From positions 2,910 to 66,909 of the forward strand of contig MGVS01000070.1 in NCBI GenBank assembly GCA_001800605.1: DNA of 64,000 nucleotides, given 5' to 3'. The notes beneath the pieces are model-generated. The model ran no database searches. It saw only the letters and a list, made by a program, of their open reading frames with translations, and was not told where the DNA came from. The translations under genes and the position numbers were made by a program. Below, in pieces: positions 5,150 to 59,646 of the stretch; the first letter of the stretch is position 1; each line of letters opens with the position of its first letter. Source of the DNA: Elusimicrobia bacterium RIFOXYD2_FULL_34_15 (GTDB lineage: Bacteria > Elusimicrobiota > UBA8919).

Positions 5150-5291
5150 TATGACTACAACCTGACCTTTTGAAGAACTCGAAGCTGACTTACGCTGAAC
5201 AATACGCTGATTGACGCAGACAAAATCAGTGTTTATCTGCGTTGTAATCCGCGTGAATCCGCTTCTATATCTTTTATGCGTGTATCTGCTT

Positions 5292-5690
5292 CTAATCTTT
5301 TCTAGCTTTATCATAAATTCGTCTCCGGATTTCTAATTTCTTGCTTCCAAAATTTATTAGTAAACCTAATTTATAATTACTTGCTTTTAGATAATACCAA
5401 AATTGTTTTTCATGTTCTTTTGTTATAAACGGCTGGCATTTAATTTCTATTAGGATTTTTTCATTAATAATTTTATCCGGAATGTAAGTTCCAACTTTAT
5501 TTTCATGATAATAAATATCTATTCTTTTTTGTTCTTCTACTTTAAGTCCTTGTTTTAATAATTCTAAACCAAGAGCGTTATCAACGATTGATTCCTTAAA
5601 TGCACCGTGAAATTCTTTCCAAATTTCGAAACATGCTCCTCTTATTTTATAAGTTTCTTTTTCGTATAAAAAATCCCCCATTTTTTTCAT
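5292..5690 (-). CDS. GxxExxY family protein (PD-(D/E)xK-fold, TIGR04256-like selfish small gene)
   Basis: N-terminal FLYEKETYKIRGACFEIWKEFHGAF matches the GxxExxY signature, and the C-terminal LINFGSKKLEIRR matches too. Its stop codon TAG is supplied by the repeat motif ATCTGCTTCTA. Confidence 0.7.
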   Translation of the reverse strand: MKKMGDFLYEKETYKIRGACFEIWKEFHGAFKESIVDNALGLELLKQGLKVEEQKRIDIYYHENKVGTYIPDKIINEKILIEIKCQPFITKEHEKQFWYYLKASNYKLGLLINFGSKKLEIRRRIYDKARKD

Positions 5691-5837: not shown

Positions 5838-6365
5838 TCAGTTCATTATACGTACTTTGGCAGTTGAAAGTTGAAGTGCTTTTGTATTTTGATTATATGT
5901 TTTCTTTTCAAAAGTAATGGAAACATTTACTATGGAATCTTCCGATGTTTCCGGATAAGTAAATGAAATACATCTTAGAGATTTTGCCAACGATATAGTT
6001 GAATTTATTACTTCATAAAGTGTCTGATCCTGTTGATAATATACATATATCTGGTTATTTTTTGTAAATGATATCCTAGAATAAGGCGGTTGGTTAGCAT
6101 CATACCTGTCAACTACAATAGAAGATGCGTCAGCTTGTCTAAGATTCTTGTTAATCGCATTAATAGCAGTTCTTCCATCTCTTTGTATGTCAGTTTTTGC
6201 ACTGGATAATTGCCAGAACTGAATAAATTTTAAAAATAATGATGTCAGAGCCATTGCAATTATGCTTACTGATACAATGTTTATCATCAATTCTACAAGG
6301 GTAAGTCCCTTTGAGCGAGTAGATAAGTGGATATGTGGATAAGTGAATAAGTGTTTGCGTTTCAT
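5838..6365 (-). CDS. Prepilin-type N-terminal cleavage/methylation domain protein (type IV minor pilin, PilV/PilE-like)
   Basis: RSKG|LTLVELMINIVSVSIIAMALTSL is a class III signal with a G-(F/L)TL(V/I)E motif. Confidence 0.55.
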   Translation of the reverse strand: MKRKHLFTYPHIHLSTRSKGLTLVELMINIVSVSIIAMALTSLFLKFIQFWQLSSAKTDIQRDGRTAINAINKNLRQADASSIVVDRYDANQPPYSRISFTKNNQIYVYYQQDQTLYEVINSTISLAKSLRCISFTYPETSEDSIVNVSITFEKKTYNQNTKALQLSTAKVRIMN

Positions 6366-6739
6366 TTATTCCTCAAACTTTTAATTAAATTTTGTAACAT
6401 TCTGCTGATGAAAAACAAGTGTTTAGTAGTTAGGTTGTCAAGTTGATATTCAGTAATAAATTTTAGTTCCTTTGCAATAACGAGTTGTGTATGTAATTCT
6501 CCACAAGAACCAAGTGAAATATACAGGAATTGAATAATTTCAGGTTTATACTGTCGCATAAATCCTTCTGCTATATTCGATGATATTGACACTGTGGCTC
6601 TTCGTATTTGACTTGTTAAACCATAAACTTCTTCTTTTGGAAAACTTTTTGTAATCAGATATACTTCTTTCACTAACTCAATACTTTTCTGCCATACTAA
6701 TAAATCAGTATAACTTTTTACTTTATCAATACTAACCAC
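6362..6739 (-). CDS. Four-helix-bundle protein. This is the 23S rRNA intervening-sequence protein family (PF05635/TIGR02436), the same family as DGR Avd.
   Basis: KSYTDLLVWQKSIELVKEVYLITKSFPKEEVYGLTSQIRRATVSISSNIAEGF is the diagnostic family motif. The ATGA overlap with the downstream pilin gene suggests co-transcription. Confidence 0.8.
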   Translation of the reverse strand: MVSIDKVKSYTDLLVWQKSIELVKEVYLITKSFPKEEVYGLTSQIRRATVSISSNIAEGFMRQYKPEIIQFLYISLGSCGELHTQLVIAKELKFITEYQLDNLTTKHLFFISRMLQNLIKSLRNK

Positions 6740-9477: not shown

Positions 9478-9552
9478 AAGAGCGGTGAATGCTTTTCAAC
9501 GCTCTAATATTTATAACACAAAACACACAAAAAGTCAAGGAGTTTTTAAATT

Positions 9553-9716
9553 CAGTATACAGTACACAGGATACAGTCTTAAGAAAAATCATAAGTTAAA
9601 ATTAAATCTAAATAGTAAGAGCTATTTGCTATTTATGCGTGCTGTGTACTGTCTTTTTAGTGCTATATTCTGTGTACTGTATTCTGTATTCTGTATACTG
9701 AGTACTGTCTTTTTAA
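9553..9716. repeat. ACAGGATACAG/CTGTATTCTGTAT repeat block with inverted-orientation arms. MITE-like element, about 165 nt.
   Basis: Left arm cagtatacagtacacaggatacagtc, right arm ctgtattctgtattctgtatactgagtactgtc. Same family as 15412-15470 and 34680-34725. Confidence 0.5.
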
Positions 9717-11632
9717 TATCTCCATGGATACCATTTTCTTTCTTCATCTTCAGGATTTTCAGTCTTTTTCTCACCGCCACCCGGTTTTATCCGGATGTTA
9801 AACCAGAATTCATAATAATTTTCTTTTTGGTCAAGAGGAATTCTTTGAATATAAGAAAAAGATGCTTCCCAACAGTGTAAATTTCTATAAACTTTTATAG
9901 CATTTTCATAATATCTGAAATTTGAAAAATTATAATTTAAAAAATCATAATTTAAAGATGTCTGCATTTTATATGCAATTTCCCAGTTTTTTGTTGGTCT
10001 AATTCCGGTTTCTGCAAAGGTGGTAAGTTTGCCCGGAGCAGCAAGGTTATAAGATACTCCGTTTTTTAAATAAGCATTTCCCTTAAAATTTATATTTGTA
10101 TCTAATTGTACGGAATTTGGTTTTCTGAATAATACGTTATAATCATTTCTATAGTAGACATTAAAAAATCTGTATGGGCTATAATCAATTTCAGTAGTTA
10201 TGCCTTCTAAACGTTCTCTAAAAGATATTATTTTTTCATTAAGCGCTCTGCGTATATTAAGTGCTGTAAAACCTCTAACAGTTAGATTATTCAAATATAC
10301 GGATTGAATTGTTCTTATCTTGTTTGTTAATACTCCATGATAATCATCATGCCGTAAATCAGGTTGTTGTTCAAATTCATGGATAAATTGGTGGTCAAAA
10401 ATTCTGGTTGAGCGTATATCCAAATCTAAATTTGTCCTGTATCGCCATGAATAAACATTTTTTTCTCTCGCAGTAATTTCGTCTCTATCTTTCCAAAATT
10501 GCTTATATCCTACTGCGGAGGTTAGTGTAATCCTTCTTGAAATAGAAAGCGGATTGGAAAATTTGATATCACCGGTTGCACCGGTTGTATAGGCACCGGT
10601 GGAAATAATTGACTTATCCCATGACCTTGCTCCGCTTAGATTTAATTCGTAATAAAGCGGTAATTTTTTTATTTTTATTTGCCTGGTCGCAAAAGATACT
10701 GCAGGAACAGATAGGGAATTCAAGATATAAATATTTTTGTTATTATCAAAGACATCACTTCTTGCAAATGTGATACGGGTTGTTGTTTGCTCTTTGTTTT
10801 TTGTAAGTGAAATCGAAGAATCTAAACTATTATAAATTTTTATCCAGTCATTTGTATAATATGCGTTAAATGACTCGTCGCTTGCATAATTTGAATTAAT
10901 TTGAGCAATCCAGTTTTGGCCTAAATTCTGCCAGTGATAAACCCTTGAATTCCACCTGATTTGTCCGGGTTTAGATGCGAAATTTTTTCCTTTAATTCTA
11001 TATCCATAAATTGTCCCGTTAACTTTGCCTTCATCTTTATAGAAAATTTCCCCTCCAGTTCCGATACCATTTATGGTAAAGTAATCAAGATAAAGTTTCC
11101 CGTAGATATATTCTGAAAGCGGATACCCAAGCATACCTTTTGCAAAAAATCCGTCGCGATTATTATAACCCGGCTTAATTTCAATTTTGTATTTTCTTTG
11201 TTTTAAATTTTTGTAATAGTATGGAAGTATTGCTGAAGGAATATCTCCTAGAAATAATACGACGTTTGTTGCGGTTATTCTTTTATTGACTATAAGGCTG
11301 GCACTTCTTGCATAATATTTGTAGTGCGGATTTTCGAGGTCACAAGTAGTGAAATAAATTCTTTTCAACAAAAGCTCTTGTGTTTTTTGATATGCTTCCA
11401 CAGAATCGCAGTTTAAATATGTATCCGTAGTTTTTAATTTTACATTGCCTGAAAAAATAGTTTTCCCTTGTAATTTATCAAACTGAACTTTATCGGAAGT
11501 TATATTGACTTCCTGCTCGCAATATAAATAAGTAACGGGTAACGAGTAACGGGTAACGAAAAGAACAGTAATGAGTAATGAGTAACGGGTAACGGGTAAT
11601 AAGATTATAAATAGTTTTTTTATATGTTTCAT
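9713..11632 (-). CDS. lptD: LPS-assembly protein LptD (OstA family)
   Basis: An OstA-like N-domain (NITSDKVQFDKLQGKTIFSGNVKL) is followed by a long beta-barrel body. The N-terminal signal region LPVTRYSLLITVLFVTRYSLPVTYL is encoded by the GTAACGGGTAACGAG repeat. Confidence 0.7.
   Translation of the reverse strand: MKHIKKLFIILLPVTRYSLLITVLFVTRYSLPVTYLYCEQEVNITSDKVQFDKLQGKTIFSGNVKLKTTDTYLNCDSVEAYQKTQELLLKRIYFTTCDLENPHYKYYARSASLIVNKRITATNVVLFLGDIPSAILPYYYKNLKQRKYKIEIKPGYNNRDGFFAKGMLGYPLSEYIYGKLYLDYFTINGIGTGGEIFYKDEGKVNGTIYGYRIKGKNFASKPGQIRWNSRVYHWQNLGQNWIAQINSNYASDESFNAYYTNDWIKIYNSLDSSISLTKNKEQTTTRITFARSDVFDNNKNIYILNSLSVPAVSFATRQIKIKKLPLYYELNLSGARSWDKSIISTGAYTTGATGDIKFSNPLSISRRITLTSAVGYKQFWKDRDEITAREKNVYSWRYRTNLDLDIRSTRIFDHQFIHEFEQQPDLRHDDYHGVLTNKIRTIQSVYLNNLTVRGFTALNIRRALNEKIISFRERLEGITTEIDYSPYRFFNVYYRNDYNVLFRKPNSVQLDTNINFKGNAYLKNGVSYNLAAPGKLTTFAETGIRPTKNWEIAYKMQTSLNYDFLNYNFSNFRYYENAIKVYRNLHCWEASFSYIQRIPLDQKENYYEFWFNIRIKPGGGEKKTENPEDEERKWYPWRY
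11523..11605. repeat. GTAACGGGTAACGAGTAACG-family tandem repeats, here inside the 5' end of lptD
   Basis: aacgggtaacgagtaacgggtaacgaaaagaacagtaatgagtaatgagtaacgggtaacgggtaat. Family members occur at 16745-16785, 17205-17260, 21050-21100, 24060-24095, 25605-25690 and 48570-48760. Confidence 0.8.
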
Positions 11633-14623: not shown

Positions 14624-15403
14624 TTAAATGTTACGAGTGATATATTTAAGAAAATTTATAATAGATTTCTTCTTTTTTATTAAACTAATTATTGCACTTC
14701 CTATGATAAAACCTTCGCAATATTTCTTTAATTTTTCTATATGTTCAGGTTTAGAAATACCGAAGCCAACAAACAATGGTTTTGAAGTTTTGTTTTTAAG
14801 TTTTTTTAAAAATGGAATTAATTCATCGGATAATTCTGCTCGCGCTCCTGTGATACCGGTTACTGCTGTGACATAAATAAAACCTGTGGATATTTTAGAT
14901 ATTTTTTCTGCTCTTTTTAAACCGCTTGTTAATGCTACAAGCGGTATATAAGCTATATTATATTTTTTTGCTAATTTTCTTATCAACGAACTTTCTTCAA
15001 AAGGTAAGTCAGGAATTATAATACCGTCTACTCCTGTTTTATGTGATTTGCTAAAAAAAGCATTCAAACCATAGTTATAAATCGGATTAAGATATCCCAT
15101 CAATATAACAGGGATTTTTGTTTTTTTTCTTATATTTTTTACAATAGAAAAACATTTTTCTAAATTTACATTATTTTCAAGTGCTTTTTGAGAAGAATAT
15201 TGTATTGTCGGACCATCAGCTATCGGATCTGAAAATGGTATCCCCAATTCAATTATATCAGAATATTTTTCTATTTCAATTATCAATTTCTCTGTAGTAT
15301 TTACATTTGGATAACCTGCAGTAAGAAATATAGAGATTGCTTTCTTTTTTTCTTTTTTTAATTTATATAATGTTTTTTCTAAATTATTCATAATGCAGCT
15401 CAC
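14624..15403 (-). CDS. trpA: Tryptophan synthase alpha chain
   Basis: FLTAGYP, ELGIPFSDPIADGPTIQ. Confidence 0.9.
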   Translation of the reverse strand: MSCIMNNLEKTLYKLKKEKKKAISIFLTAGYPNVNTTEKLIIEIEKYSDIIELGIPFSDPIADGPTIQYSSQKALENNVNLEKCFSIVKNIRKKTKIPVILMGYLNPIYNYGLNAFFSKSHKTGVDGIIIPDLPFEESSLIRKLAKKYNIAYIPLVALTSGLKRAEKISKISTGFIYVTAVTGITGARAELSDELIPFLKKLKNKTSKPLFVGFGISKPEHIEKLKKYCEGFIIGSAIISLIKKKKSIINFLKYITRNI

Positions 15404-15411
15404 AGGATACA

Positions 15412-15470
15412 GGATACAGGATACAGGATACAGGATACAGGATACAGGATACAGAATACAGAATACAGAA
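15412..15470. repeat. Microsatellite (CAGGATA)7(CAGAATA)3, the reverse complement of (CTGTATC)n. It lies directly upstream of the trpA start, between trpB and trpA.
   Basis: acaggatacaggatacaggatac...agaatacagaatacagaatt read directly. Confidence 0.85.
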
Positions 15471-16687: not shown

Positions 16688-16784
16688 ATCGATTTATTAT
16701 ACAAAAAATAGCATAAAAAACAATAAAAATAGCAGTTAACATATTACCCATTACTCGTTACTCATTACCCGTTACTTATTTTCT

Positions 16785-17207: not shown

Positions 17208-17250
17208 TTTACCCGTTACTCGTTACTCAGCCTGTCCCGATTTATCGGGA

Positions 17251-19475
<2,225 letters not shown>

Positions 19476-20998: not shown

Positions 20999-21104
20999 AA
21001 ATTATCCTTGTTTTGTCAGCCGAAGTTCCTTCGGAACGTAGGTATGCTGCCTTTTACTCATTACCCCCGCCACAGGCGGGCAAGCGTTACCCGTTACTAG
21101 TTAC

Positions 21105-24059: not shown

Positions 24060-24097
24060 TTTACACGTTACCCATTACTCGTTACTCGTTACTTTCT

Positions 24098-25048: not shown

Positions 25049-25711
25049 TTATTTTTTTGGAAGCGTCATTAAAGTTGTGTTAATAACACCGTTAGCTTCC
25101 TCTTTTAACGGTGAGTGCAAAGCTTTATCTATAGTTTTTTCAACAAGTTGTGAGGCAAACGCTCTCCCGATATCCTTAAATTCAAATTCTTTTTTTGAAA
25201 CTTTTCGTTCATCTTCCCATAAAAGCTGTTCTGTTTTTGCATCAAATAATTTAAAATTTCCCTCGACAGTTCTTGCATAATAAAAACCAAGAGTAGTATA
25301 TTTAAACTCTATTACATCTCCGAAAAAAAGCCCGTCAACGTTTAATTTTTCACCTAATTCTTTCGGGGTGGTTGTCGGAAATTGCCCGGCTTCGGTAATA
25401 CCCATTTTTCTTAATTTCTCATCTATTTCTTCAAGCGGAATAGTGTTATAACCAATATTGGTTAGCCGTTTATTAAAAAGATACCGCAATAAAACCGGTG
25501 CATTCAAATCAATGGATTGGTTGGAAAACGGCAAAACAGCAACTCGCGCAGGCGGTATATAATTTTCTATTATATACTTTGCTTTCGGCGCACAACCAAT
25601 AAATAAAAAACAAATAACGAGTAATGAGTAACCAGTAAAAGACAAGTAATGAGTAACGGGTAACGAGTAACGGGGAACGGGTAAAAAGTAAAGTAATTTT
25701 AAATTTTTCAT
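25049..25711 (-). CDS. Lipoprotein, possibly the DUF799-type partner of CsgG-like proteins
   Basis: Lipobox FIGC and adjacency to the CsgG-like gene. N-terminal 30 aa (LPVPRYSLPVTHYLSFTGYSLLVI) are encoded by the GTAACGGG repeat. Confidence 0.35.
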   Translation of the reverse strand: MKNLKLLYFLPVPRYSLPVTHYLSFTGYSLLVICFLFIGCAPKAKYIIENYIPPARVAVLPFSNQSIDLNAPVLLRYLFNKRLTNIGYNTIPLEEIDEKLRKMGITEAGQFPTTTPKELGEKLNVDGLFFGDVIEFKYTTLGFYYARTVEGNFKLFDAKTEQLLWEDERKVSKKEFEFKDIGRAFASQLVEKTIDKALHSPLKEEANGVINTTLMTLPKK

Positions 25712-33533: not shown

Positions 33534-34703
33534 TTAGAGTTCGATTGCTGATATAATTTTTTTGATATTTGGTTCTAATACTTTTGGTTGTTTTGCCGAT
33601 TTTATTGCTCTATCAGGATCTTTCAGTCCATGTCCCGTTACCGTGCAAACAATCACACAGCCTGATTTTTGGATATTTATTTTTGAATTGAATTTTATAA
33701 GTCCGGCGACGGATGCTGCTGATGCCGGTTCGACAAAGACACCTTCTAAAGAAGCTAATAGTCTATATGCTTTTATTATTTCTGAATCAGTGACCATATC
33801 TATAACACCCTTTGATTCGTCTCTTGCTTCTTCTGCTTTTTTCCAACTTGCGGGATTTCCGATTTTTATAGCGGTTGCTATTGTCTTTGGGTTTTTTATT
33901 GGTTTACCTTTTACAATAGGTGCAGAACCGGATGCCTGAAAACCCATCATGTGTGGCAGGTTACAGGTCTCGCCACGGCGAGCAGGAAAAGGTAGAAAGG
34001 TAGAAAGGTTAGGACTTAATTTTAACCTTTTACTTTTAACTTTTAACTTTGATTTATCATTTGCATATTCTTTATAGCCTTTCCAGTAAGCAGTGATATT
34101 TCCGGCGTTTCCGACCGGAATAAAATGATAATCCGGAGCCCTGCCCAAAAAGTCGATTATTTCAAAAGCTGCGGTTTTTTGGCCTTCAATTCTATATGGA
34201 TTTACTGAATTAACAAGCGTAATCGGATAATTTTTTGTTATTTCAATAACGATTTTTAGTGCCTCATCAAAATTCCCTTTTAATGCTATGACCTTTGCTC
34301 CATGCATCATTGCCTGTGAAAGTTTGCCTAACGCGATAGAACCATCGGGAATTACAACTGAACATTTAAGTCCTGCTCTTGCGGAATACGCAGCAGCTGA
34401 CGCAGCGGTATTGCCGGTTGAAGCACAAATAACTGCTTTGCTTCCTTCTTCAACTGCTTTAGAAATTGCCATTGTCATACCGCGGTCTTTGAAAGAACCG
34501 GTTGGATTCATCCCTTCAAATTTTAAATAAATCTCAGAATTTACCTTTAAGAATTTTTCGAGGTTTCTTGCCCGTAACAATGGCGTATTACCCTCATAAA
34601 GCGTAACTATAGGTGTCTTGTCAGACACGGGTAGATACTTCCTATATCTATCAATAATCCCTTTATAAATCATATTTAAACCAGGATACAGAATACAGTA
34701 CAC
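33534..34703 (-). CDS. thrC: Threonine synthase, carrying an in-frame insertion of about 35 aa derived from intergenic repeat families
   Basis: PLP site [18 protein letters not shown], then ...[18 protein letters not shown]-[insert][14 protein letters not shown]. Confidence 0.85.
33955..34064. repeat. Composite repeat inserted in-frame in thrC. Units are tcgccacggcgag, (ggtagaaag)2 and (ttttaac)n.
   Basis: ggtctcgccacggcgagcaggaaaaggtagaaaggtagaaaggttaggacttaattttaaccttttacttttaacttttaactttga. It translates to [35 protein letters not shown]. Confidence 0.8.
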
Positions 34704-47751: not shown

Positions 47752-48479
47752 TTATTAAAATCTTCCAATTGTTTAAAAAGATCATCCCCAAACTGGGATT
47801 CCTTTTTGGCAGGTTTTTCAGATTTTTTTTCAGTTGATTTTTTTATGCTTATATCTTGCTCAGATTTTTGCTCCGTAATTTCTTTTTTTCGTGTTTCGGT
47901 TTTATATTGAGACAGAGAAATTTTCTTAACTATTATTTTAGGCGGTAAATTTCCTTCGTTCAAAGAAACAACCCCGCCGGCATTTCCGTTATAATATATT
48001 CTAAAAGGTGCATCTTTAATTGTAGGCTGGTAAGAAGTTCCTTTAATTTCTAATTCTGTTTCCCATCTAGGATGAATAATAAGTTTGCCGTTTGCATCTG
48101 CGATGCCTTTTACTATAGGAATTGAAAATCTTACTTTATATATACCATTTACATCCGTCACGGCATTTTCAAATCCTATTCCGTCAACCATAATTTGAAT
48201 ATCAGGCATGGGAATACCGTCTTCTGTGTCTATTTCACCTTTAAGGTAACCCTCTATCCAGTCTGTATAATTTGCACTTGAAAAAAATAAAAATCTTTTA
48301 TAACCGGCTAGTTTTTTTACGACTGATAAATCAGATAAACGATTGGGATTCAGGTTTTCGTTTATAGTCGTGATTTTTCCTGTCGATTTACTACCGATTA
48401 ACGGAAAACCTGAACAACCTATAAAAAGTAATGTAAAAATTAAAAATGAAAAATTAAAAATTAATGTATACTTTTTCAT
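47748..48479 (-). CDS. Lipoprotein, unknown function, with a K/E-rich C-terminus
   Basis: Signal MKKYTLIFNFSFLIFTLLFIGC. The h-region is encoded by the TTAAAA-family repeat at 48435-48467. Confidence 0.4.
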   Translation of the reverse strand: MKKYTLIFNFSFLIFTLLFIGCSGFPLIGSKSTGKITTINENLNPNRLSDLSVVKKLAGYKRFLFFSSANYTDWIEGYLKGEIDTEDGIPMPDIQIMVDGIGFENAVTDVNGIYKVRFSIPIVKGIADANGKLIIHPRWETELEIKGTSYQPTIKDAPFRIYYNGNAGGVVSLNEGNLPPKIIVKKISLSQYKTETRKKEITEQKSEQDISIKKSTEKKSEKPAKKESQFGDDLFKQLEDFNK

Positions 48480-48559: not shown

Positions 48560-48760
48560 GAATTACGCATTAACCAGCCTGTCCCGATTCATCGGAATTA
48601 CCCGTTACTTAGCCTGTCCTGCCGCCCATGGCGAGCCTCGCCCCTTTGGGGCGGGAGCATTTTAAACTGTCGAAGGATTACTCATTACCCCGCCACTAGG
48701 TCTTTGGCGGGCAAGCATTACCCGTTACCCGTTACTCGTTACTATCTTTTTATTCTTTTT
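48560..48760. repeat. Composite intergenic repeat block. It contains a CAGCCTGTCCCGATTCATCGG hairpin unit, GC-rich hairpins (gccgcccatggcgag, ctcgcccctttggggcggg, ccgccactaggtctttggcgg) and GTAACGGG units.
   Basis: The same units recur at 17205-17260 and 21050-21100. Confidence 0.7.
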
Positions 48761-49319
48761 GTTTCTTTAATACTACTTTATCAATTTCTTCAATTTTCTT
48801 TTTTGCCCACCTGTTCTCAGGAAATTTCGTTATTAAAAGTTCTTTTGCTTTTTTTAAAGCATCAGGACGCTGCGGCATAGAATAGTATTCTTCTATTATT
48901 CTTTGGTATAATCTGATAGCTTCCCTGAAATTGGAGAGCTGTTCATCTATTTTTGCTGCTTCATCCAATGACCATGAAGCATACTGACTTTTTGGGAATT
49001 TATTAGCAAGTTCTTCATAAGCGACTGTAGCTTCATTCCATTGATTCATCCTTACAAATGATTCGGCTATTTTCTTTTGAGCTTCATCTCCGTAATAGAT
49101 ATCACCAAACTGGTCTATATAATACTGATATTCGGCAATAGCTTCATTATATTTACCGTCATAATAATATTTTTCTGCCCGTTGGAATTGCTGAACTGCA
49201 GCCTGGTTCCCCCAGTAATCACCGGTTCTAACAGGTCTTCTCAGGGCGCAACCGACAAAAAGGCAATTAAAAATTAAAAATGAAAAATTAAAAATTAAAG
49301 TTAAACTTCTTTTTTTCAT
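48750..49319 (-). CDS. TPR-like lipoprotein (BamD/YbgF-like)
   Basis: Signal MKKRSLTLIFNFSFLIFNCLFVGC is near-identical to the signal of 47748-48479 and is encoded by the repeat at 49265-49298. TPR helices follow. Confidence 0.5.
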   Translation of the reverse strand: MKKRSLTLIFNFSFLIFNCLFVGCALRRPVRTGDYWGNQAAVQQFQRAEKYYYDGKYNEAIAEYQYYIDQFGDIYYGDEAQKKIAESFVRMNQWNEATVAYEELANKFPKSQYASWSLDEAAKIDEQLSNFREAIRLYQRIIEEYYSMPQRPDALKKAKELLITKFPENRWAKKKIEEIDKVVLKKQKE

Positions 49320-55918: not shown

Positions 55919-56203
55919 TTAATTGTTTTCTTCGGCTGATTCATTAACTGAAGAATTTTTAAACCTGTTCAATTCGGATTTGAGTTTTATATATTGTACT
56001 GTAAGAACAAATAACATTGATATTAAAATTATAATTACTGTTATCAGCCAGAAGTTTTGATTTATTCTGCCCAACGCAAAACCGAAAACCCCCGCGAAAG
56101 TAGTTGTTAACCACTTGGGTGAATTATCCCACAAATTTTTTCCGTGTGTGTTCATGAACACTTTACCTTTGTTTAAAGTAGCTTCTAATCTTTCCTTATC
56201 CAT
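55919..56203 (-). CDS. Small 2-TM membrane protein, paralog A of the WD(N/S)SPKW(L/F) family. Start set at the ATG giving MDKERLEATL.
   Basis: ...GKNLWDNSPKWLTTTFAGVFGFALGRINQNFWLITVIIILISMLFVL. The ORF-track extension to 56230 runs into the ispF-tail repeat. Confidence 0.45.
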   Translation of the reverse strand: MDKERLEATLNKGKVFMNTHGKNLWDNSPKWLTTTFAGVFGFALGRINQNFWLITVIIILISMLFVLTVQYIKLKSELNRFKNSSVNESAEENN

Positions 56204-56204
56204 T

Positions 56205-56306
56205 TTTAATAATACATACAGCGCAGGCACAGATTGCTTTGCCTTTACCGATGCCCCCCACCCGTTCTCTTGTTGTTGCCTTGATGCTTATATTTTTTGT
56301 TTTTAA
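56205..56306. repeat. Partial duplicate of the ispF 3' end, copy 1, about 100 nt. It reads in frame as IKATTRERVGGIGKGKAICACAVCIIKNG*.
   Basis: ttaataatacatacagcgcaggcacagattgctttgcctttaccgatgccccccacccgttctcttgttgttgccttgatgcttatattttttgtttttaaagcc, compared with the native ispF tail at 59150-59255. Confidence 0.8.
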
Positions 56307-56328
56307 AGCCAATATTTAATATATTTAA

Positions 56329-57474
56329 TTATTCTAAATAATTTTCTTGAAATTCATCAAAACCATCAATTTTTGTAAAATCAATATTAAAATTATTTTT
56401 ATCTATTTTTGTTATTCTAACACTATCAATTCCTATTATTTTTAACTTTTCATATGTTAGTAGTTCGTCTTCTTTTAATTTTAGAACTTTTCTTAAAAGC
56501 CAATCTGAAAGAGCATTATTCGGATTTGTCATCAATGCTTTTGAATTTTCCTGACAAACTTTTGCATTTAATATTTCACCAGTAGGAATATGTAAATTAA
56601 ACGATTTATCCCTTGGTGGCAAAAAATTAGGAAAGTTTTTGTGAATTTGGATTGGAATGGGAATATATACTTCTCCCGAGTCTCTTTTTCTACCACCGGC
56701 ATTCCACTGATTTAAACCGCTTTTTTCTGCAACTACTTTGTTATTTTTTTTACTTTCTCTTAATGAATATAAAGGTAAAATTATATAATCTTCTCCTGGA
56801 ACTTCTGAGGTAGGTTGTTTTATATCAATTTTTCTAAACAAAGTTAAAATTAACTCATAAGGATCTTCTAAAATCTGTATTGGTAGGTCAATTGAGTTAG
56901 TAGGAATTTCAAATTTTTTAAATAGAGTACTTTTTGAAAAATTAAAAGAATATTCATTTTTTATATCATTAAACTGAATACCTGCTATTGAAGATTTTAT
57001 ATTTCTTATTTTATTTTCATCAATTAATTCATAATCAGTTTCAAATATTTTTAGTATTTTTTTTCCACGAGCAATACAATGATAAATGGAATTTTCAACA
57101 CCATATGTTCTTATAGCAAATTTAATTCTTTCGTTTCTTAAATTAGATAAACGCAGTACTAATTTTGTATTGTCTAAATTTCTTAATTCTTTACTAAAAG
57201 CATTGAATTCGGCAATCTTTTCAATCGCATATTTTCCTTTCACGGTAAAAGTTTTTAATCCGATGCCGATATTATCTTTTTTGGCATCAAATGCTAAATC
57301 ATCTCTTGACAGGTTATCAGCATTGAAAGATTTACAAAAGATATTCTCTGCTACTCTATAATATAGATAAGGAACTTCATTGTCACTAAACAATTTTGAT
57401 AAAGAACAAATTGCTTTTAAATAGTTAAAATAAAGTTTTTTAGAATTATCTGGTTGTGATGAAATGAATATCAC
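56329..57474 (-). CDS. Putative type II restriction endonuclease (family not recognised). A possible PD-(D/E)xK core lies in the N-terminal region.
   Basis: 381-aa ORF overlapping the 3' end of the adjacent MTase gene by 29 nt, a typical R-M arrangement. N-terminal D...FDAKK. No similarity to housekeeping families. Confidence 0.45.
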   Translation of the reverse strand: MIFISSQPDNSKKLYFNYLKAICSLSKLFSDNEVPYLYYRVAENIFCKSFNADNLSRDDLAFDAKKDNIGIGLKTFTVKGKYAIEKIAEFNAFSKELRNLDNTKLVLRLSNLRNERIKFAIRTYGVENSIYHCIARGKKILKIFETDYELIDENKIRNIKSSIAGIQFNDIKNEYSFNFSKSTLFKKFEIPTNSIDLPIQILEDPYELILTLFRKIDIKQPTSEVPGEDYIILPLYSLRESKKNNKVVAEKSGLNQWNAGGRKRDSGEVYIPIPIQIHKNFPNFLPPRDKSFNLHIPTGEILNAKVCQENSKALMTNPNNALSDWLLRKVLKLKEDELLTYEKLKIIGIDSVRITKIDKNNFNIDFTKIDGFDEFQENYLE

Positions 57475-58402
57475 TTTGATAAGTCTCCTTTAGTGGTAAT
57501 TGATTTTCAATTGTTTTTTTCGAATTTAATATTCTTTCTTCTGCCAAATTACAAAATTTTTCATTTATTTCAAAACCAATATAATTTCTATTTGATACTA
57601 TACTTGCTATGGCAGTTGTACCACTTCCCATAAAAGGGTCTAAAACTATATCGTTTTCTTTAGAAGTTGTTAAAACCAAAGGTTTTATTAGTGACTCAGG
57701 ATAAGATGCTTGATGTTCTCCAAAAGGTTCTATTCCGCATCTTATTATATCTCTGTGATAATTAAGCTGTTTTGCCATATTTAAGTCAAAATAATATTTT
57801 CGTGATTTTACAAAATGAAAAATATGTTCATAAACAGGATATCTTCTATCAGGTGAATAAGAGGGAACAGGATTAGGCTTTTCCCAAATTATTTTATTGC
57901 GTAAAATCCAACCTTGTTCTTGCATTCCCATTGCAACTCTTTCAGGTAACATTAAAAGTTGTTTATATTGTAAATATTTTCCATTGGGCTTTGCAATTTT
58001 ATGTTCTTTATAATGTTTATCTGTTTTTCTTGCATATTTTCCTTTATTTCGCACAAATCCTTTTGTACCAAAATATACATCTCCAATATTTAAATAAAAA
58101 GACCCTTCTTTATTTAAAACTCTTTTTAATTCATTACTATATTTTAATAAATTTGTGACATATTCTAATGGATGCTCTTCTCTTCCAAGAGTTTCATTCC
58201 CGTAGATCCTGCATCCAAAATATGGTGGACTTGTAATAATTAAATTAACAAAATTATCTGGCAATTCTTTTATTAATTTTAAAGAGTCTCCACAGATGAT
58301 TTTATTAACAAAATCAATCCCATTTTTATTGAGATTCTTTGTATCATAAATAACAATATTATTTTTAAATAATAATTTTTTTCTTTTTTTCTTTTTATAC
58401 AT
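57446..58402 (-). CDS. DNA methyltransferase, beta-class amino-MTase (N4-cytosine or N6-adenine)
   Basis: Motif IV SPPY precedes motif I DPFMGSGTT. ParB-less type II solitary-size enzyme, 318 aa. Confidence 0.85.
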   Translation of the reverse strand: MYKKKKRKKLLFKNNIVIYDTKNLNKNGIDFVNKIICGDSLKLIKELPDNFVNLIITSPPYFGCRIYGNETLGREEHPLEYVTNLLKYSNELKRVLNKEGSFYLNIGDVYFGTKGFVRNKGKYARKTDKHYKEHKIAKPNGKYLQYKQLLMLPERVAMGMQEQGWILRNKIIWEKPNPVPSYSPDRRYPVYEHIFHFVKSRKYYFDLNMAKQLNYHRDIIRCGIEPFGEHQASYPESLIKPLVLTTSKENDIVLDPFMGSGTTAIASIVSNRNYIGFEINEKFCNLAEERILNSKKTIENQLPLKETYQSDIHFITTR

Positions 58403-58404
58403 TT

Positions 58405-58605
58405 TTAAAAATCTAACTCTTTTTTATAACTTATATTTAAAACTAAAACAATAGACAATACTATGATAAGAACTAAAAAAATTATGCTTATCCAAAATGG
58501 TGGACCTGCTTGAATTTTGGATAATATAGCTGTAAAAATTATAGCAACAATGGTAATAAACCATTTAGGTATTTTATACAAGATATTCTTTGCCAAGTTA
58601 CTCAT
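58405..58605 (-). CDS. Small 2-TM membrane protein, paralog B of the SPKW family
   Basis: MSNLAKNILYKIPKWFITIVAIIFTAILSKIQAGPPFWISIIFLVLIIVL. The ORF-track N-terminal extension (KAKQSVPALYVLL) is the ispF-tail repeat read in another frame. Confidence 0.4.
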   Translation of the reverse strand: MSNLAKNILYKIPKWFITIVAIIFTAILSKIQAGPPFWISIIFLVLIIVLSIVLVLNISYKKELDF

Positions 58606-58607
58606 AA

Positions 58608-58672
58608 TTGTTATTAATAATACATACAGCGCAGGCACAGATTGCTTTGCCTTTACCGATGCCCCCACCCGT
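58608..58672. repeat. Partial duplicate of the ispF 3' end, copy 2, about 65 nt. 58 nt are identical to copy 1 apart from a single-C indel.
   Basis: taataatacatacagcgcaggcacagattgctttgcctttaccgatgcccccacccgttt. Confidence 0.8.
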
Positions 58673-58676
58673 TTTT

Positions 58677-59141
58677 CTAAAACTTTAGTTCTTTTTTGAC
58701 AAATTCCAGAGCTTCTTTAAGATCAAATTTTTTACAATCTTCATTCATCAGTTCTCTAATACTGTTTCCGACATCGCAGGAAAAATGCGCTCCGAATCCA
58801 TAAGTTTGAGGAAAATATTTCATTTGTCTAGGTTCTCTACAACAAGTACAATATGGTCTATTATCGATTGTTTTTTTATTATAATTTATCAACCATTTTA
58901 CGCCAAATCTTGAAATAAATTCTTTTTTATCTTTTCTTTGAGTTATTTGTATATACTTCTTAGTTTTGAAATATAAAACAATGAATACAAATAAAGCAAA
59001 AACTAAAATTATAATAGCTATAATCGGCCAGAATAACTGACCTTTTTTAATTTTTAAGATAGTGGTTGTTAAAATTGCTGTAAAAAGTACAAGCAACCAT
59101 TTTGGGGAAGAATCCCATATATTTTTAGCCCACTTAATCAT
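58677..59141 (-). CDS. Small 2-TM membrane protein, paralog C of the SPKW family, with a C-terminal Cys-rich (Zn-ribbon-like) domain
   Basis: MIKWAKNIWDSSPKWLLVLFTAIL..KKGQLFWPIIAIIILVFALF. C-terminal CTCCREPRQ...HFSCD. Its ATG overlaps the ispF stop (ATGATTAA). Confidence 0.45.
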   Translation of the reverse strand: MIKWAKNIWDSSPKWLLVLFTAILTTTILKIKKGQLFWPIIAIIILVFALFVFIVLYFKTKKYIQITQRKDKKEFISRFGVKWLINYNKKTIDNRPYCTCCREPRQMKYFPQTYGFGAHFSCDVGNSIRELMNEDCKKFDLKEALEFVKKELKF

Positions 59142-59646
59142 ATTTTCCGTTTTTTATTATACATACAGCATAGGCGCAGATTGCTTTACCTTTGCCGATG
59201 TTTCCAACTCCTTCGTTTGTTGTTGCTTTGATGCTTATATTCTTTGTTTTTAAAATCTTTGAAATTTTACTTTTCATATTTTCTATATATGAAGAAATTT
59301 TTGGCTGTTCTGCAATAACCATAGAATCTATATTTTCAATTTTGTATCCTAATTTTTTAATTAAATTATGTGTTTTTTCCAGCAAAATTAAACTTGAAAT
59401 ATTTTTAAACTTTTTATCAGAATTTGGAAAATGAATGCCTATATCACCTAGCCCTGCCGCACCAAGAAGTGAATCACAAATTGCATGAAGCAGGACATCA
59501 CCGTCAGAATGAGCAAGCATCCCTTTTTTAAATTTTATTTTTACTCCACCTAAATAAAGAGGCTTACCTTTTACTAATCTATGAATATCATAACCAAAAC
59601 CAATACGGATAGTGGTGTTCTGATGTTCTATAGTTCTACTGTTCAT
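59134..59646 (-). CDS. ispF: 2-C-methyl-D-erythritol 2,4-cyclodiphosphate synthase
   Basis: IGFGYDIHRL, HSDGDVLLHAICDSLLGAAGLGDIGIHFP, and C-terminal KATTNEGVGNIGKGKAICAYAVCII, which corresponds to the canonical IspF C-terminus. Confidence 0.9.
   Translation of the reverse strand: MNSRTIEHQNTTIRIGFGYDIHRLVKGKPLYLGGVKIKFKKGMLAHSDGDVLLHAICDSLLGAAGLGDIGIHFPNSDKKFKNISSLILLEKTHNLIKKLGYKIENIDSMVIAEQPKISSYIENMKSKISKILKTKNISIKATTNEGVGNIGKGKAICAYAVCIIKNGKYD

Follow-up and report, generated by a model that had tools for sequence, protein, structure and literature searches.

Seven and eight nucleotide tandem arrays in predicted signal peptides of an Elusimicrobiota genome

The window analyzed here is a stretch of 64,000 nucleotides (nt) from Elusimicrobia bacterium RIFOXYD2_FULL_34_15 (GenBank assembly GCA_001800605.1, contig MGVS01000070.1, positions 2,910–66,909), and positions given below without a genome or locus label are positions in the window. 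The window is approximately 34% GC and nearly every gene is on the minus strand. An open reading frame (ORF) of 639 amino acids (aa) at positions 9713–11632 is predicted to encode LptD, and a degenerate tandem array of seven nucleotide units is present within its 5′ end. Arrays of this general type are also found at the 5′ ends of three predicted lipoprotein genes. The array DNA in these presequences, i.e. the N-terminal segments predicted to be cleaved, is the subject of this report.

The LptD and lipoprotein presequences and the array families

The four genes display the following features (↓ marks a presumed processing site here and below).

11519..11632, minus strand: predicted LptD presequence, codons 1–38, with the basic N-terminal region (n-region) MKHIKK, an array-encoded core and YLYC, followed by the conserved EQEVNITSDK
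11531..11599, minus strand: LptD heptamer array found by Tandem Repeats Finder (TRF), sense units TTACCCG, TTACTCG and TTACTCA, 9.7 units in two blocks parted by TTACTGTTCTTTTCG
9713..11518, minus strand: predicted mature LptD homologue, a beta-jellyroll N-domain and a large beta-barrel (Pfam PF03968, AlphaFold (AF2) model, Foldseek)
25592..25711, minus strand: predicted presequence of a GNA1162-like lipoprotein (Pfam PF05643), codons 1–40, with the lipobox FIGC at its end and an in-frame TTG at codon 23
25615..25691, minus strand: TTACYCG-family array in the GNA1162-like gene, about 10 units, 72%–77% matches, stop-free in all sense frames
48414..48479, minus strand: predicted presequence of a 243 aa lipoprotein (MKKYTLIFNFSFLIFTLLFIGC), with the Shine-Dalgarno sequence AAGGAG ahead of it
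48434..48464, minus strand: AT-rich heptamer array of the 243 aa lipoprotein, sense units TTAATTT and TTCATTT; the sole open frame is the frame used, where an in-frame TAA has become TCA
49248..49319, minus strand: predicted presequence of a TPR (BamD/YbgF-like) lipoprotein (MKKRSLTLIFNFSFLIFNCLFVGC), with the Shine-Dalgarno sequence GAGGGG ahead of it
49265..49299, minus strand: AT-rich heptamer array of the TPR lipoprotein, with a 29 nt core identical to that at 48436–48464

The minus strand reading of 11632..11519 is MKHIKKLFIILLPVTRYSLLITVLFVTRYSLPVTYLYC, after which EQEVNITSDK begins. The array spans codons 12–34 of the ORF, and TRF gives it a period of 7, 9.7 copies and 74% matches; an open-frame count shows all three sense frames to be without stop codons. 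Translation and the TRF array together confirm the original prediction, which had been made from the letters of the sequence, that a repeat encodes the N-terminal segment of this protein. The n-region MKHIKK has three K/R among the first seven residues of the chain. The best 10 aa Kyte-Doolittle mean of the core is 2.49 (SLLITVLFVT), which is comparable to ordinary signal peptides, and 11 uncharged residues lie between R16 and R28. After codon 1, the first ATG, GTG or TTG of the ORF lies beyond codon 60, far into the LptD_N domain.

The LptD label given earlier is borne out. The Pfam LptD_N domain (PF03968) is matched at aa positions 43–86 of the 639 aa chain. The AF2 model (mean predicted local distance difference test score, pLDDT, 80.6) is all-beta with a jellyroll and a large barrel, and its top 37 Foldseek matches in the PDB are all LptD, the best being 8h1r_A at E = 2.5e-27 (TM 0.54–0.64). 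These results support the prediction that the ORF encodes an LptD homologue. Residues 1–40 have pLDDT values below 50 in the model, with one helix at 18–28. The ORF DNA is identical to the locus of ortholog entry P0030, which is OGS44738.1. LptD is normally essential in bacteria with lipopolysaccharide (LPS). LptE was not identified within the 64 kb window, where no test aimed at an LptE partner or at LPS pathway genes was made. Beyond the LptD stop codon, at positions 9550–9712, CAGTATA arrays face arrays of the reverse complement, TATTCTG/TATACTG. The facing arrays could form a long hairpin and are possibly a terminator. A similar inverted pair, of octamers, is present in the ilvB-ilvN spacer of the related locus L139.

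The GNA1162-like ORF at 25049..25711 starts MKNLKLLYFLPVPRYSLPVTHYLSFTGYSLLVICFLFIGC↓APKAKY. The array fills codons 7–33, ahead of the lipobox FIGC, and at positions 25653–25681 there is a site for the 15-mer GTAACGGGTAACGAG with no more than two mismatches. This agrees with the earlier claim that LptD and this lipoprotein share a repeat. The same 15-mer has 16 sites in the window at that threshold; 0.01 are expected from shuffles. The start of the gene has been annotated in two ways, as 198 aa from the internal TTG (GenBank OGS44754.1) and as 220 aa from the ATG.

A second repeat had been described in the two other lipoproteins, and this also holds. The 29-mer AAAATTAAAAATGAAAAATTAAAAATTAA has exactly two copies in the window, at 48436–48464 and 49270–49298, where 0 are expected, and it encodes LIFNFSFLIF in both chains. 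Both chains have MKK n-regions and lipoboxes. The spacer between these two genes at 48560–48745 is GC-rich and hairpin-rich, and Rfam at gathering thresholds gave nothing in it.

The lipobox rule (PROSITE PS51257) is {DERK}(6)-[LIVMFWSTAG](2)-[LIVMFYSTAGCQ]-[AGS]-C, with K/R in the first seven residues and the Cys at position 15–35. The pattern is matched in all three lipoproteins, with the Cys at positions 22 and 24 in the AT-rich cases and at 40 in the GNA1162-like protein. The array-encoded cores display best 10 aa Kyte-Doolittle means of 2.25–3.2, against 2.4–2.8 in ordinary signal peptides of the window; hydrophobicity and lipobox were scored by script, which is a crude stand-in for signal-peptide prediction.

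The array units found in the window are the heptamers TAACGRG, ACAGGAT and AATTAAA and the octamers AGGTAGAA and AGTGGATA. Because 7 and 8 are coprime with 3, a homogeneous array reads as the same cyclic seven or eight residue peptide in every frame of a strand. This explains the frame behavior of the TTACYCG family. In the TTACYCG orientation there is no stop codon in any frame and the array encodes L-P/L-V-T-R-Y-S; in the TAACGRG orientation TAA is present in all three frames. In five of five cases the intergenic copies of this family, read in the direction of transcription, have the orientation with stops. The AT-rich family would have an in-frame TAA every 21 nt. Both lipoprotein genes have been opened, in the used frame only, by a change of TAA to TCA, and no frame is open in the intergenic copies of this family.

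A TRF search for period-7 and period-8 arrays found 26 in the 64 kb window. Sixteen are intergenic, where the intergenic share of the window is 8.3% (P = 1e-11), and nine are within coding sequence. Five of these nine are in predicted cleaved presequences, which comprise 1.44% of the coding DNA (P = 7e-8). Ten of the 16 intergenic arrays end no more than 60 nt upstream of a start codon, e.g. atpC (2 nt), thrC (9 nt), trpA (11 nt), ispD (16 nt) and ilvN (18 nt). The arrays within coding sequence and some of the intergenic arrays are listed below.

Predicted cleaved presequences: five arrays (LptD, three lipoproteins, one prepilin leader)
IspF N-terminal extension: one array
Internal to mature coding sequence: three arrays
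16744..16780, plus strand: intergenic TTACYCG-family array that runs the other way, sense TAACGRG, each of the three frames having stops
17209–17228, 21083–21097, 24061–24093 and 48718–48742: further intergenic arrays in the TAACGRG orientation
15402..15468, no strand assigned: ACAGGAT × 9.6 array, 98% matches, in the spacer between trpB and trpA, 11 nt ahead of the trpA ATG

The repeats had originally been termed interspersed and had been tied to signal peptides. They are indeed dispersed, but as families of short tandem arrays and not as classical interspersed repeats. They are present in exported proteins as described, but they are not special to these; most are intergenic, and others are found in prepilin leaders, at the IspF N-terminus and in ThrC. 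Neither Rfam (gathering thresholds) nor ARAGORN gave a match anywhere in the window, thus no array is a known RNA family. A composite hairpin element (GTCCCGATTTATCGGGA) flanked by heptamers is present at 17216–17262 and 48563–48609.

Orthologs and strains

LptD orthologs of 50%–72% identity display an ATG with a basic n-region, a 7 or 8 nt tandem array and the junction LYC, LYS or LYA↓(E)QE(I/V)NITSDK, all in frame, and the type of array differs between them. The position of the junction, L-Y-(C/S/A/G)↓(E)QE, is conserved. A comparison of ortholog N-termini had been proposed with the original prediction, and it found no orthologs with an ordinary signal that starts downstream of the repeat. 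The hydrophobic cores of the orthologs are cleaner than that of the window LptD. Presequences from the LptD ortholog entries (P) and array DNA from lptD loci (L) are as follows.

P0032: ...GGVLFIFNFSFFIFNYLYC↓AQE
P0003: MNTKFYGFSLLITSYLLLLTHLYC↓EQE
P0038: MKIKFYGFFLIFNFTFLIFNCLYS↓QE
P0039: ...LLLITLSPYHLITVLYA↓EE
P0005: MKINFYRFFLLTHLLTYSLSHCLSG↓QE
L001: TTACTTM × 5, encodes SLLITSYLLLLTH
L003: TTMATTT × 5, encodes FIFNFSFFIFN
L007: TAATTTT × 5, encodes FLIFNFTFLIFN
L010: octamer CTTATCAC, encodes LITLSPYHLIT

The four lptD loci are syntenic, and all of them keep the n-region MxxKFYGF and the c-region CTTTAYTGC-GMACAGGAA in frame. Four array types are found among five LptD proteins whose mature parts are 85%–91% identical. 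The closest LptD ortholog, P0002, was not placed on a contig and the cluster member P0034 was used in its stead. In the more distant orthologs P0010 and P0011 (45%–49% identity), an ordinary signal peptide occupies the corresponding position. P0038 and P0040 have mature parts that are 86% identical and an identical 26 residue presequence.

In homologues of the GNA1162-like and TPR lipoproteins conservation begins at the lipobox Cys; the presequences ahead of it are long, variable and rich in repeats. Some of the presequences have Lys-rich n-regions (VKSKKLKVKS) that come from the A-rich strand of another heptamer. Two RIFOXY strains that are about 0.2% divergent (L136 and L138) differ by seven substitutions outside the lipoprotein presequence over 3.7 kb. 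Within the presequence, an 82 nt segment consisting of an array of the octamer CTACCTTT in one strain is replaced by an unrelated 97 nt segment, a hairpin element and a 12-mer array, in the other. Both segments are in frame and the lipobox is kept. In the presequence of one strain's lipoprotein (P0082), the peptide FPPLRRWRVRLRISGGN resembles an insert in the window FolC (PPLRLWRIRHRSNGEN), which suggests another dispersed translatable hairpin element.

Four independent assemblies from one groundwater Elusimicrobiota population match the window exactly where they overlap it, also within the arrays, and this rules out assembly error. A fifth assembly (L011) shows two substitutions relative to the window, both in LptD and outside of any array. 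At the consensus level there are no array length differences across the five assemblies of the window population, and the LptD array is unchanged across four assemblies of the sister species (L003–L006). Between L003 and L004, which display 0.4% substitutions, the sole indel site is a 46 nt tandem repeat in the atpC-trpB spacer (L003 positions ~560–810), with about five copies in one and one copy in the other, a difference of 169 nt. The comparison of L007 with L008 was uninformative because synteny is lost downstream of LptD.

Several ortholog entries are truncated or are fused to neighboring genes at arrays (P0037, P0085). P0085, a short GNA1162 call, was considered as an "off" allele and was rejected, since its presequence is joined to ilvN codon 20 by a deletion or misjoin and slippage does not account for it. 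Homogenization of arrays within a genome was also considered. An array type common to LptD and the GNA1162-like gene was seen only in the window and in COS68, i.e. in two of the five genomes that offered two presequences to compare, which is not significant, and the proposal was dropped.

Arrays in prepilin leaders, cytoplasmic proteins and other phyla

Arrays and related repeats are also found in leaders of the pilin type, at one cytoplasmic N-terminus and within mature proteins, as listed here.

6306..6365, minus strand: prepilin-type leader of a minor pilin (MKRKHLFTYPHIHLSTRSKG↓LTLVELM), with an octamer array at 6318–6353
5165..5314, minus strand: 50 codon leader of a third pilin-like gene, before KG↓QVVVIM, with ATCTGCG-type repeats at 5226–5302
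33978..34055, minus strand: 26 aa in-frame insertion in threonine synthase (ThrC), consisting of arrays of the heptamer AAGTTAA and the octamer CTACCTTT
59608..59646, minus strand: 13 residue N-terminal extension of IspF (MNSRTIEHQNTTI), with an octamer array at 59616–59644; it overlaps the ispD stop codon

The orthologs of the minor pilin have short leaders without an array, MKKKG↓ in L001 and MYKKRKG↓ in L003, and the leader of the third pilin-like gene is MNIKKG↓QVVV in the L001 ortholog. Other pilin leaders display different repeats in different genomes. At positions 11412–11500 of L003, an element composed of a hairpin and heptamers is read in frame within a pilin leader (FTRYPDRPVSSGLPVTRN). 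The pilin-like operon of the window is interleaved with a PDDEXK_3 gene and a gene for a four-helix-bundle protein of the "23S rRNA intervening sequence" type (IVP), at 5292–5690 and 6362–6739 on the minus strand. Both genes are absent from this position in L001 and L003, and in L010 it is occupied by two IVP genes. These genes resemble small selfish insertions.

ThrC residues 207–232 are unmatched in the alignment to PDB 2zsj, and this insert, which solved ThrC structures such as 2zsj lack, is the clearest array inside a mature protein. The TIGR00151 match of IspF begins at aa 14, and the extension shows that an array can also be tolerated at the N-terminus of a cytoplasmic protein. In UvrB, an octamer array (TATCGCAC × 3.9) at 2941–2971 on the minus strand is read in frame (GHSIAPSHYPTISRY). 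It presumably forms a loop about five residues longer than that of E. coli UvrB. Between cysS and ispF, at 55919–59254 on the minus strand, are an NgoFVII-like restriction enzyme and an N6/N4 DNA methylase. This region is flanked by three copies of a 112 nt repeat (positions 56196, 58604 and 59143) and two paralogous genes for small membrane proteins.

A scan of species-representative genomes for the exact pattern (GTAACGR)3 found more than 120 loci in many phyla; about 0.5 would be expected in random sequence by a back-of-envelope estimate. The matches include Chloroflexia, Saprospiraceae, Gemmatimonadota, Verrucomicrobiota, Planctomycetota, Patescibacteria and, in Cyanobacteria, Richelia, Okeania, Pleurocapsa and Spirulina. 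A further scan of 120 loci of other phyla for (CYCGTTA)n in long ORFs was noisy because of spurious ORFs in high-GC sequence, and we retained just the few in-frame cases that were clear. In FolC of Elusimicrobia UBA4817, RYSLLVTRY replaces nine residues in frame and the chain length is unchanged. Other in-frame cases of this family are an amidohydrolase, the N-terminus of IspE and a XerC/D-like recombinase.

Interpretation and relation to known repeat systems

The explanation that we consider probable, and that is well favored over the others, is that repeat arrays are translated as the hydrophobic core or the bulk of cleaved presequences and that they came to be there by tolerance and co-option. 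The lineage carries many dispersed families of 7 and 8 nt tandem arrays, mostly in intergenic and intercistronic spacers. Stop-free T-rich copies are bounded on one side by an ATG with a basic (Lys/Arg) n-region and on the other by a conserved site of presumed processing, i.e. the signal peptidase (SPase) I-type LYC↓EQE in LptD, the lipobox in the three lipoproteins and G↓F/L/Q in the prepilins. In its T-rich sense orientation the array would yield a peptide rich in Leu, Ile, Phe and Val, which could form the hydrophobic core of the presequence, or its mere bulk. After Sec targeting, SPase I, SPase II or prepilin peptidase would cut off the presequence and the mature protein would be free of the array.

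Presequence DNA may then accept expansion, insertion and replacement of repeats almost as non-coding DNA does, because a presequence needs no more than a basic start, a hydrophobic segment and a motif for processing. The constraints left would be the frame, the lack of stop codons and the cleavage motif, and the expected outcome is a very fast turnover of the signal-peptide core. From the sequence comparisons we infer tolerance rather than adaptive switching, and translation, a function in export and the cleavage positions named above are likewise what these comparisons suggest. Of the two possibilities raised originally, i.e. that repeat-derived sequence is used as the export signal or that the true starts are non-canonical, comparison with relatives favors the former. 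The cargo also speaks for it, since proteins with an LptD fold, a PF05643 lipoprotein match or a lipobox have to be exported.

Several points weigh against this explanation. The LptD core is a poor signal by textbook standards, with R16 and R28 inside it and a longest uncharged stretch of 11 residues, and 10 residues separate R28 from the presumed cleavage site. No obvious Shine-Dalgarno sequence precedes the LptD start. In the GNA1162-like protein the lipobox Cys, at position 40, is outside the usual 15–35, and initiation at the in-frame TTG (codon 23) could yield a shortened signal that has no basic n-region, where the Cys would be at position 18 and no K/R would precede it. Since gene callers never fail to return some ORF, an in-frame reading tells us something only when orthologs have the same n-region peptide.

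Elsewhere in the window, ORFs are spuriously extended by stop-free arrays, as in trpA (a GTG start, VSCI-) and thrC (10 residues), and GenBank uses the internal TTG of the GNA1162-like gene. The arrays could on these grounds be 5′ untranslated sequence that was annotated as coding, with the true start non-canonical or internal and downstream. This explanation is scarcely credible, however. The claim that no alternative start exists downstream of the repeat stands for LptD, where a protein that starts at the next available codon would be without an export signal. For the ORF at 25049..25711 it also stands as regards the sequence downstream, but the TTG at codon 23 is in frame inside the repeat region. 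The lipobox Cys directly follows the array, therefore any lipoprotein signal peptide, which has 15 or more residues, must include array sequence. The ATG and n-region peptides are conserved and remain in frame whichever array follows, the ATGs of both AT-rich cases have good Shine-Dalgarno sequences ahead of them, and the substitutions that remove stop codons are exactly in the used frame. Less improbable, but still unlikely, is that the arrays act mainly at the level of nucleic acid near start codons, as sites for an RNA- or single-stranded DNA (ssDNA)-binding regulator or as unstructured initiation regions, with translation incidental. The closeness of 10 of the 16 intergenic arrays to start codons and the recurrence of (GTAACGR)3 in many distant phyla are in its favor, as is an orientation rule like that of MacGregor, in which the forward orientation has stops in all frames (PMC4679880). 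The spacers are short, however, so that nearness to start codons is nearly unavoidable. The array type at a given gene differs between close relatives, which argues against a gene-specific regulatory site, and arrays are inside ThrC and UvrB as well. The LptD and lipoprotein peptides must in any case still work as signals, and a role of this kind would complement array-encoded presequences rather than exclude them.

Phase variation of the opa type, where slipped-strand gain or loss of units shifts the frame and switches envelope proteins on and off, is very unlikely, though not as far-fetched as misannotation. The 7 and 8 nt units are in the leader-coding 5′ region, as are the CTCTT repeats of Neisseria opa (PMC3960869). 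The proteins concerned are surface or envelope proteins, and the 46 nt intergenic repeat does vary in copy number between L003 and L004. The TTACYCG arrays, however, are degenerate (72%–77% matches, no more than two identical consecutive units), which suppresses slippage. The AT-rich signal arrays (91%–92% matches) are interrupted by the unit that removes the stop codon, and near-perfect arrays, i.e. ACAGGAT with 98% matches, are intergenic. The arrays are constant in length across the assemblies of the window population, as is the LptD array in those of the sister species, and no out-of-frame allele was seen, P0085 being a deletion or misjoin. On/off switching of LptD, normally an essential protein, would be lethal. 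The difference between L136 and L138 is replacement of a whole segment and not a change by unit steps.

A broader proposal goes beyond array-encoded presequences in this lineage. The arrays with a TAAC-core heptamer and the related octamer arrays could be a cross-phylum, actively propagating system, where stop-free copies are repeatedly domesticated as targeting peptides and stop-containing copies fill 5′ untranslated regions and intercistronic spacers. Cores, n-regions and prepilin leaders would then be born or replaced on the timescale of strains by templated insertion or replacement and not by slippage. This proposal is speculative and we regard it as improbable, if slightly less so than an action of the arrays mainly as nucleic acid.

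If array-encoded presequences are confirmed, they would be a lineage-wide natural case of microsatellite-like DNA that supplies the signal-peptide core, even for an essential protein of outer-membrane biogenesis, and the core would be exchanged wholesale between strains that are about 99.8% identical elsewhere. In the laboratory, signal peptides have been found to tolerate nearly random hydrophobic sequence, and this would be the counterpart in evolution. There are also practical aspects, as start calls are inconsistent at genes with arrays and assemblers break or misjoin at them. A literature search gave no precedent that joins a signal peptide with a heptanucleotide repeat and nothing relevant on tandem repeats in Elusimicrobia. 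The combination of constitutive array-encoded signal-peptide cores, that of LptD included, with replacement at the strain level was thus not located in the searchable literature.

The Neisseria opa genes carry CTCTT pentamer coding repeats in the region of the leader peptide (PMC3960869). The arrays described here are similar in that the unit length is not divisible by three and in that they are in the 5′ coding region and appear to be translated within the signal peptide of an envelope protein. Unlike the opa repeats, which are perfect, prone to slippage and act as an on/off switch, they are degenerate and stable across assemblies, are found in an essential gene (lptD) and are replaced whole between strains.

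The closest repeat system described is that of the TAACTGA heptamer direct repeats of Beggiatoaceae, Cyanobacteria and Bacteroidetes (MacGregor 2015, PMC4679880). These have been proposed as binding sites for an RNA- or ssDNA-binding regulator; signal peptides are mentioned zero times in that paper, and the translated copies are mainly in hypothetical ORFs (PMC4679880). Both systems are dispersed, mostly intergenic and near start codons. In both, one orientation has stops in all frames and the reverse is translatable and occasionally found at ORF edges, and the TAAC core is common to them. The unit sequences and the phylum differ, however, and the translated copies in Elusimicrobiota systematically form predicted cleavable targeting sequences of identifiable envelope proteins.

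The short tandemly repeated repetitive (STRR) heptanucleotides of cyanobacteria, with the units CCCCAGT, TTGGTCA and CAACAGT, are reportedly non-coding and have been used for strain fingerprinting (an account attributed to Mazel and colleagues, 1990). To our knowledge no presequence role has been described for them. The families in the window resemble them as 7 nt tandem arrays scattered through the genome. The unit sequences are not the same as those of the STRR or TAACTGA families, and only the TAAC core is common with TAACTGA. The present findings would extend the heptamer-repeat phenomenon of STRR and TAACTGA to Elusimicrobiota, where the tolerated sites are cleaved presequences, N-termini and loops.

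The palindromic elements of Rickettsia, which Ogata and colleagues are said to have described in 2000 and which PMC1779305 mentions, are reportedly palindromes of 100–150 bp inserted in frame on the surfaces of mature proteins. There, as in the ThrC insert and the L003 pilin-leader element, repeat DNA survives in ORFs where extra residues are tolerated. The elements in the window differ in being 7 and 8 nt tandem arrays that are concentrated in predicted cleaved presequences. The tandem repeats of Borgs, according to a preprint, are said to have units divisible by three when in ORFs and to encode disordered regions of mature proteins. Both kinds are fast-evolving tandem repeats of environmental genomes that appear to be translated and selected to stay in frame. 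Unlike the Borg repeats, those described here have 7 and 8 nt units and would encode hydrophobic or basic segments of presequences that are cleaved.

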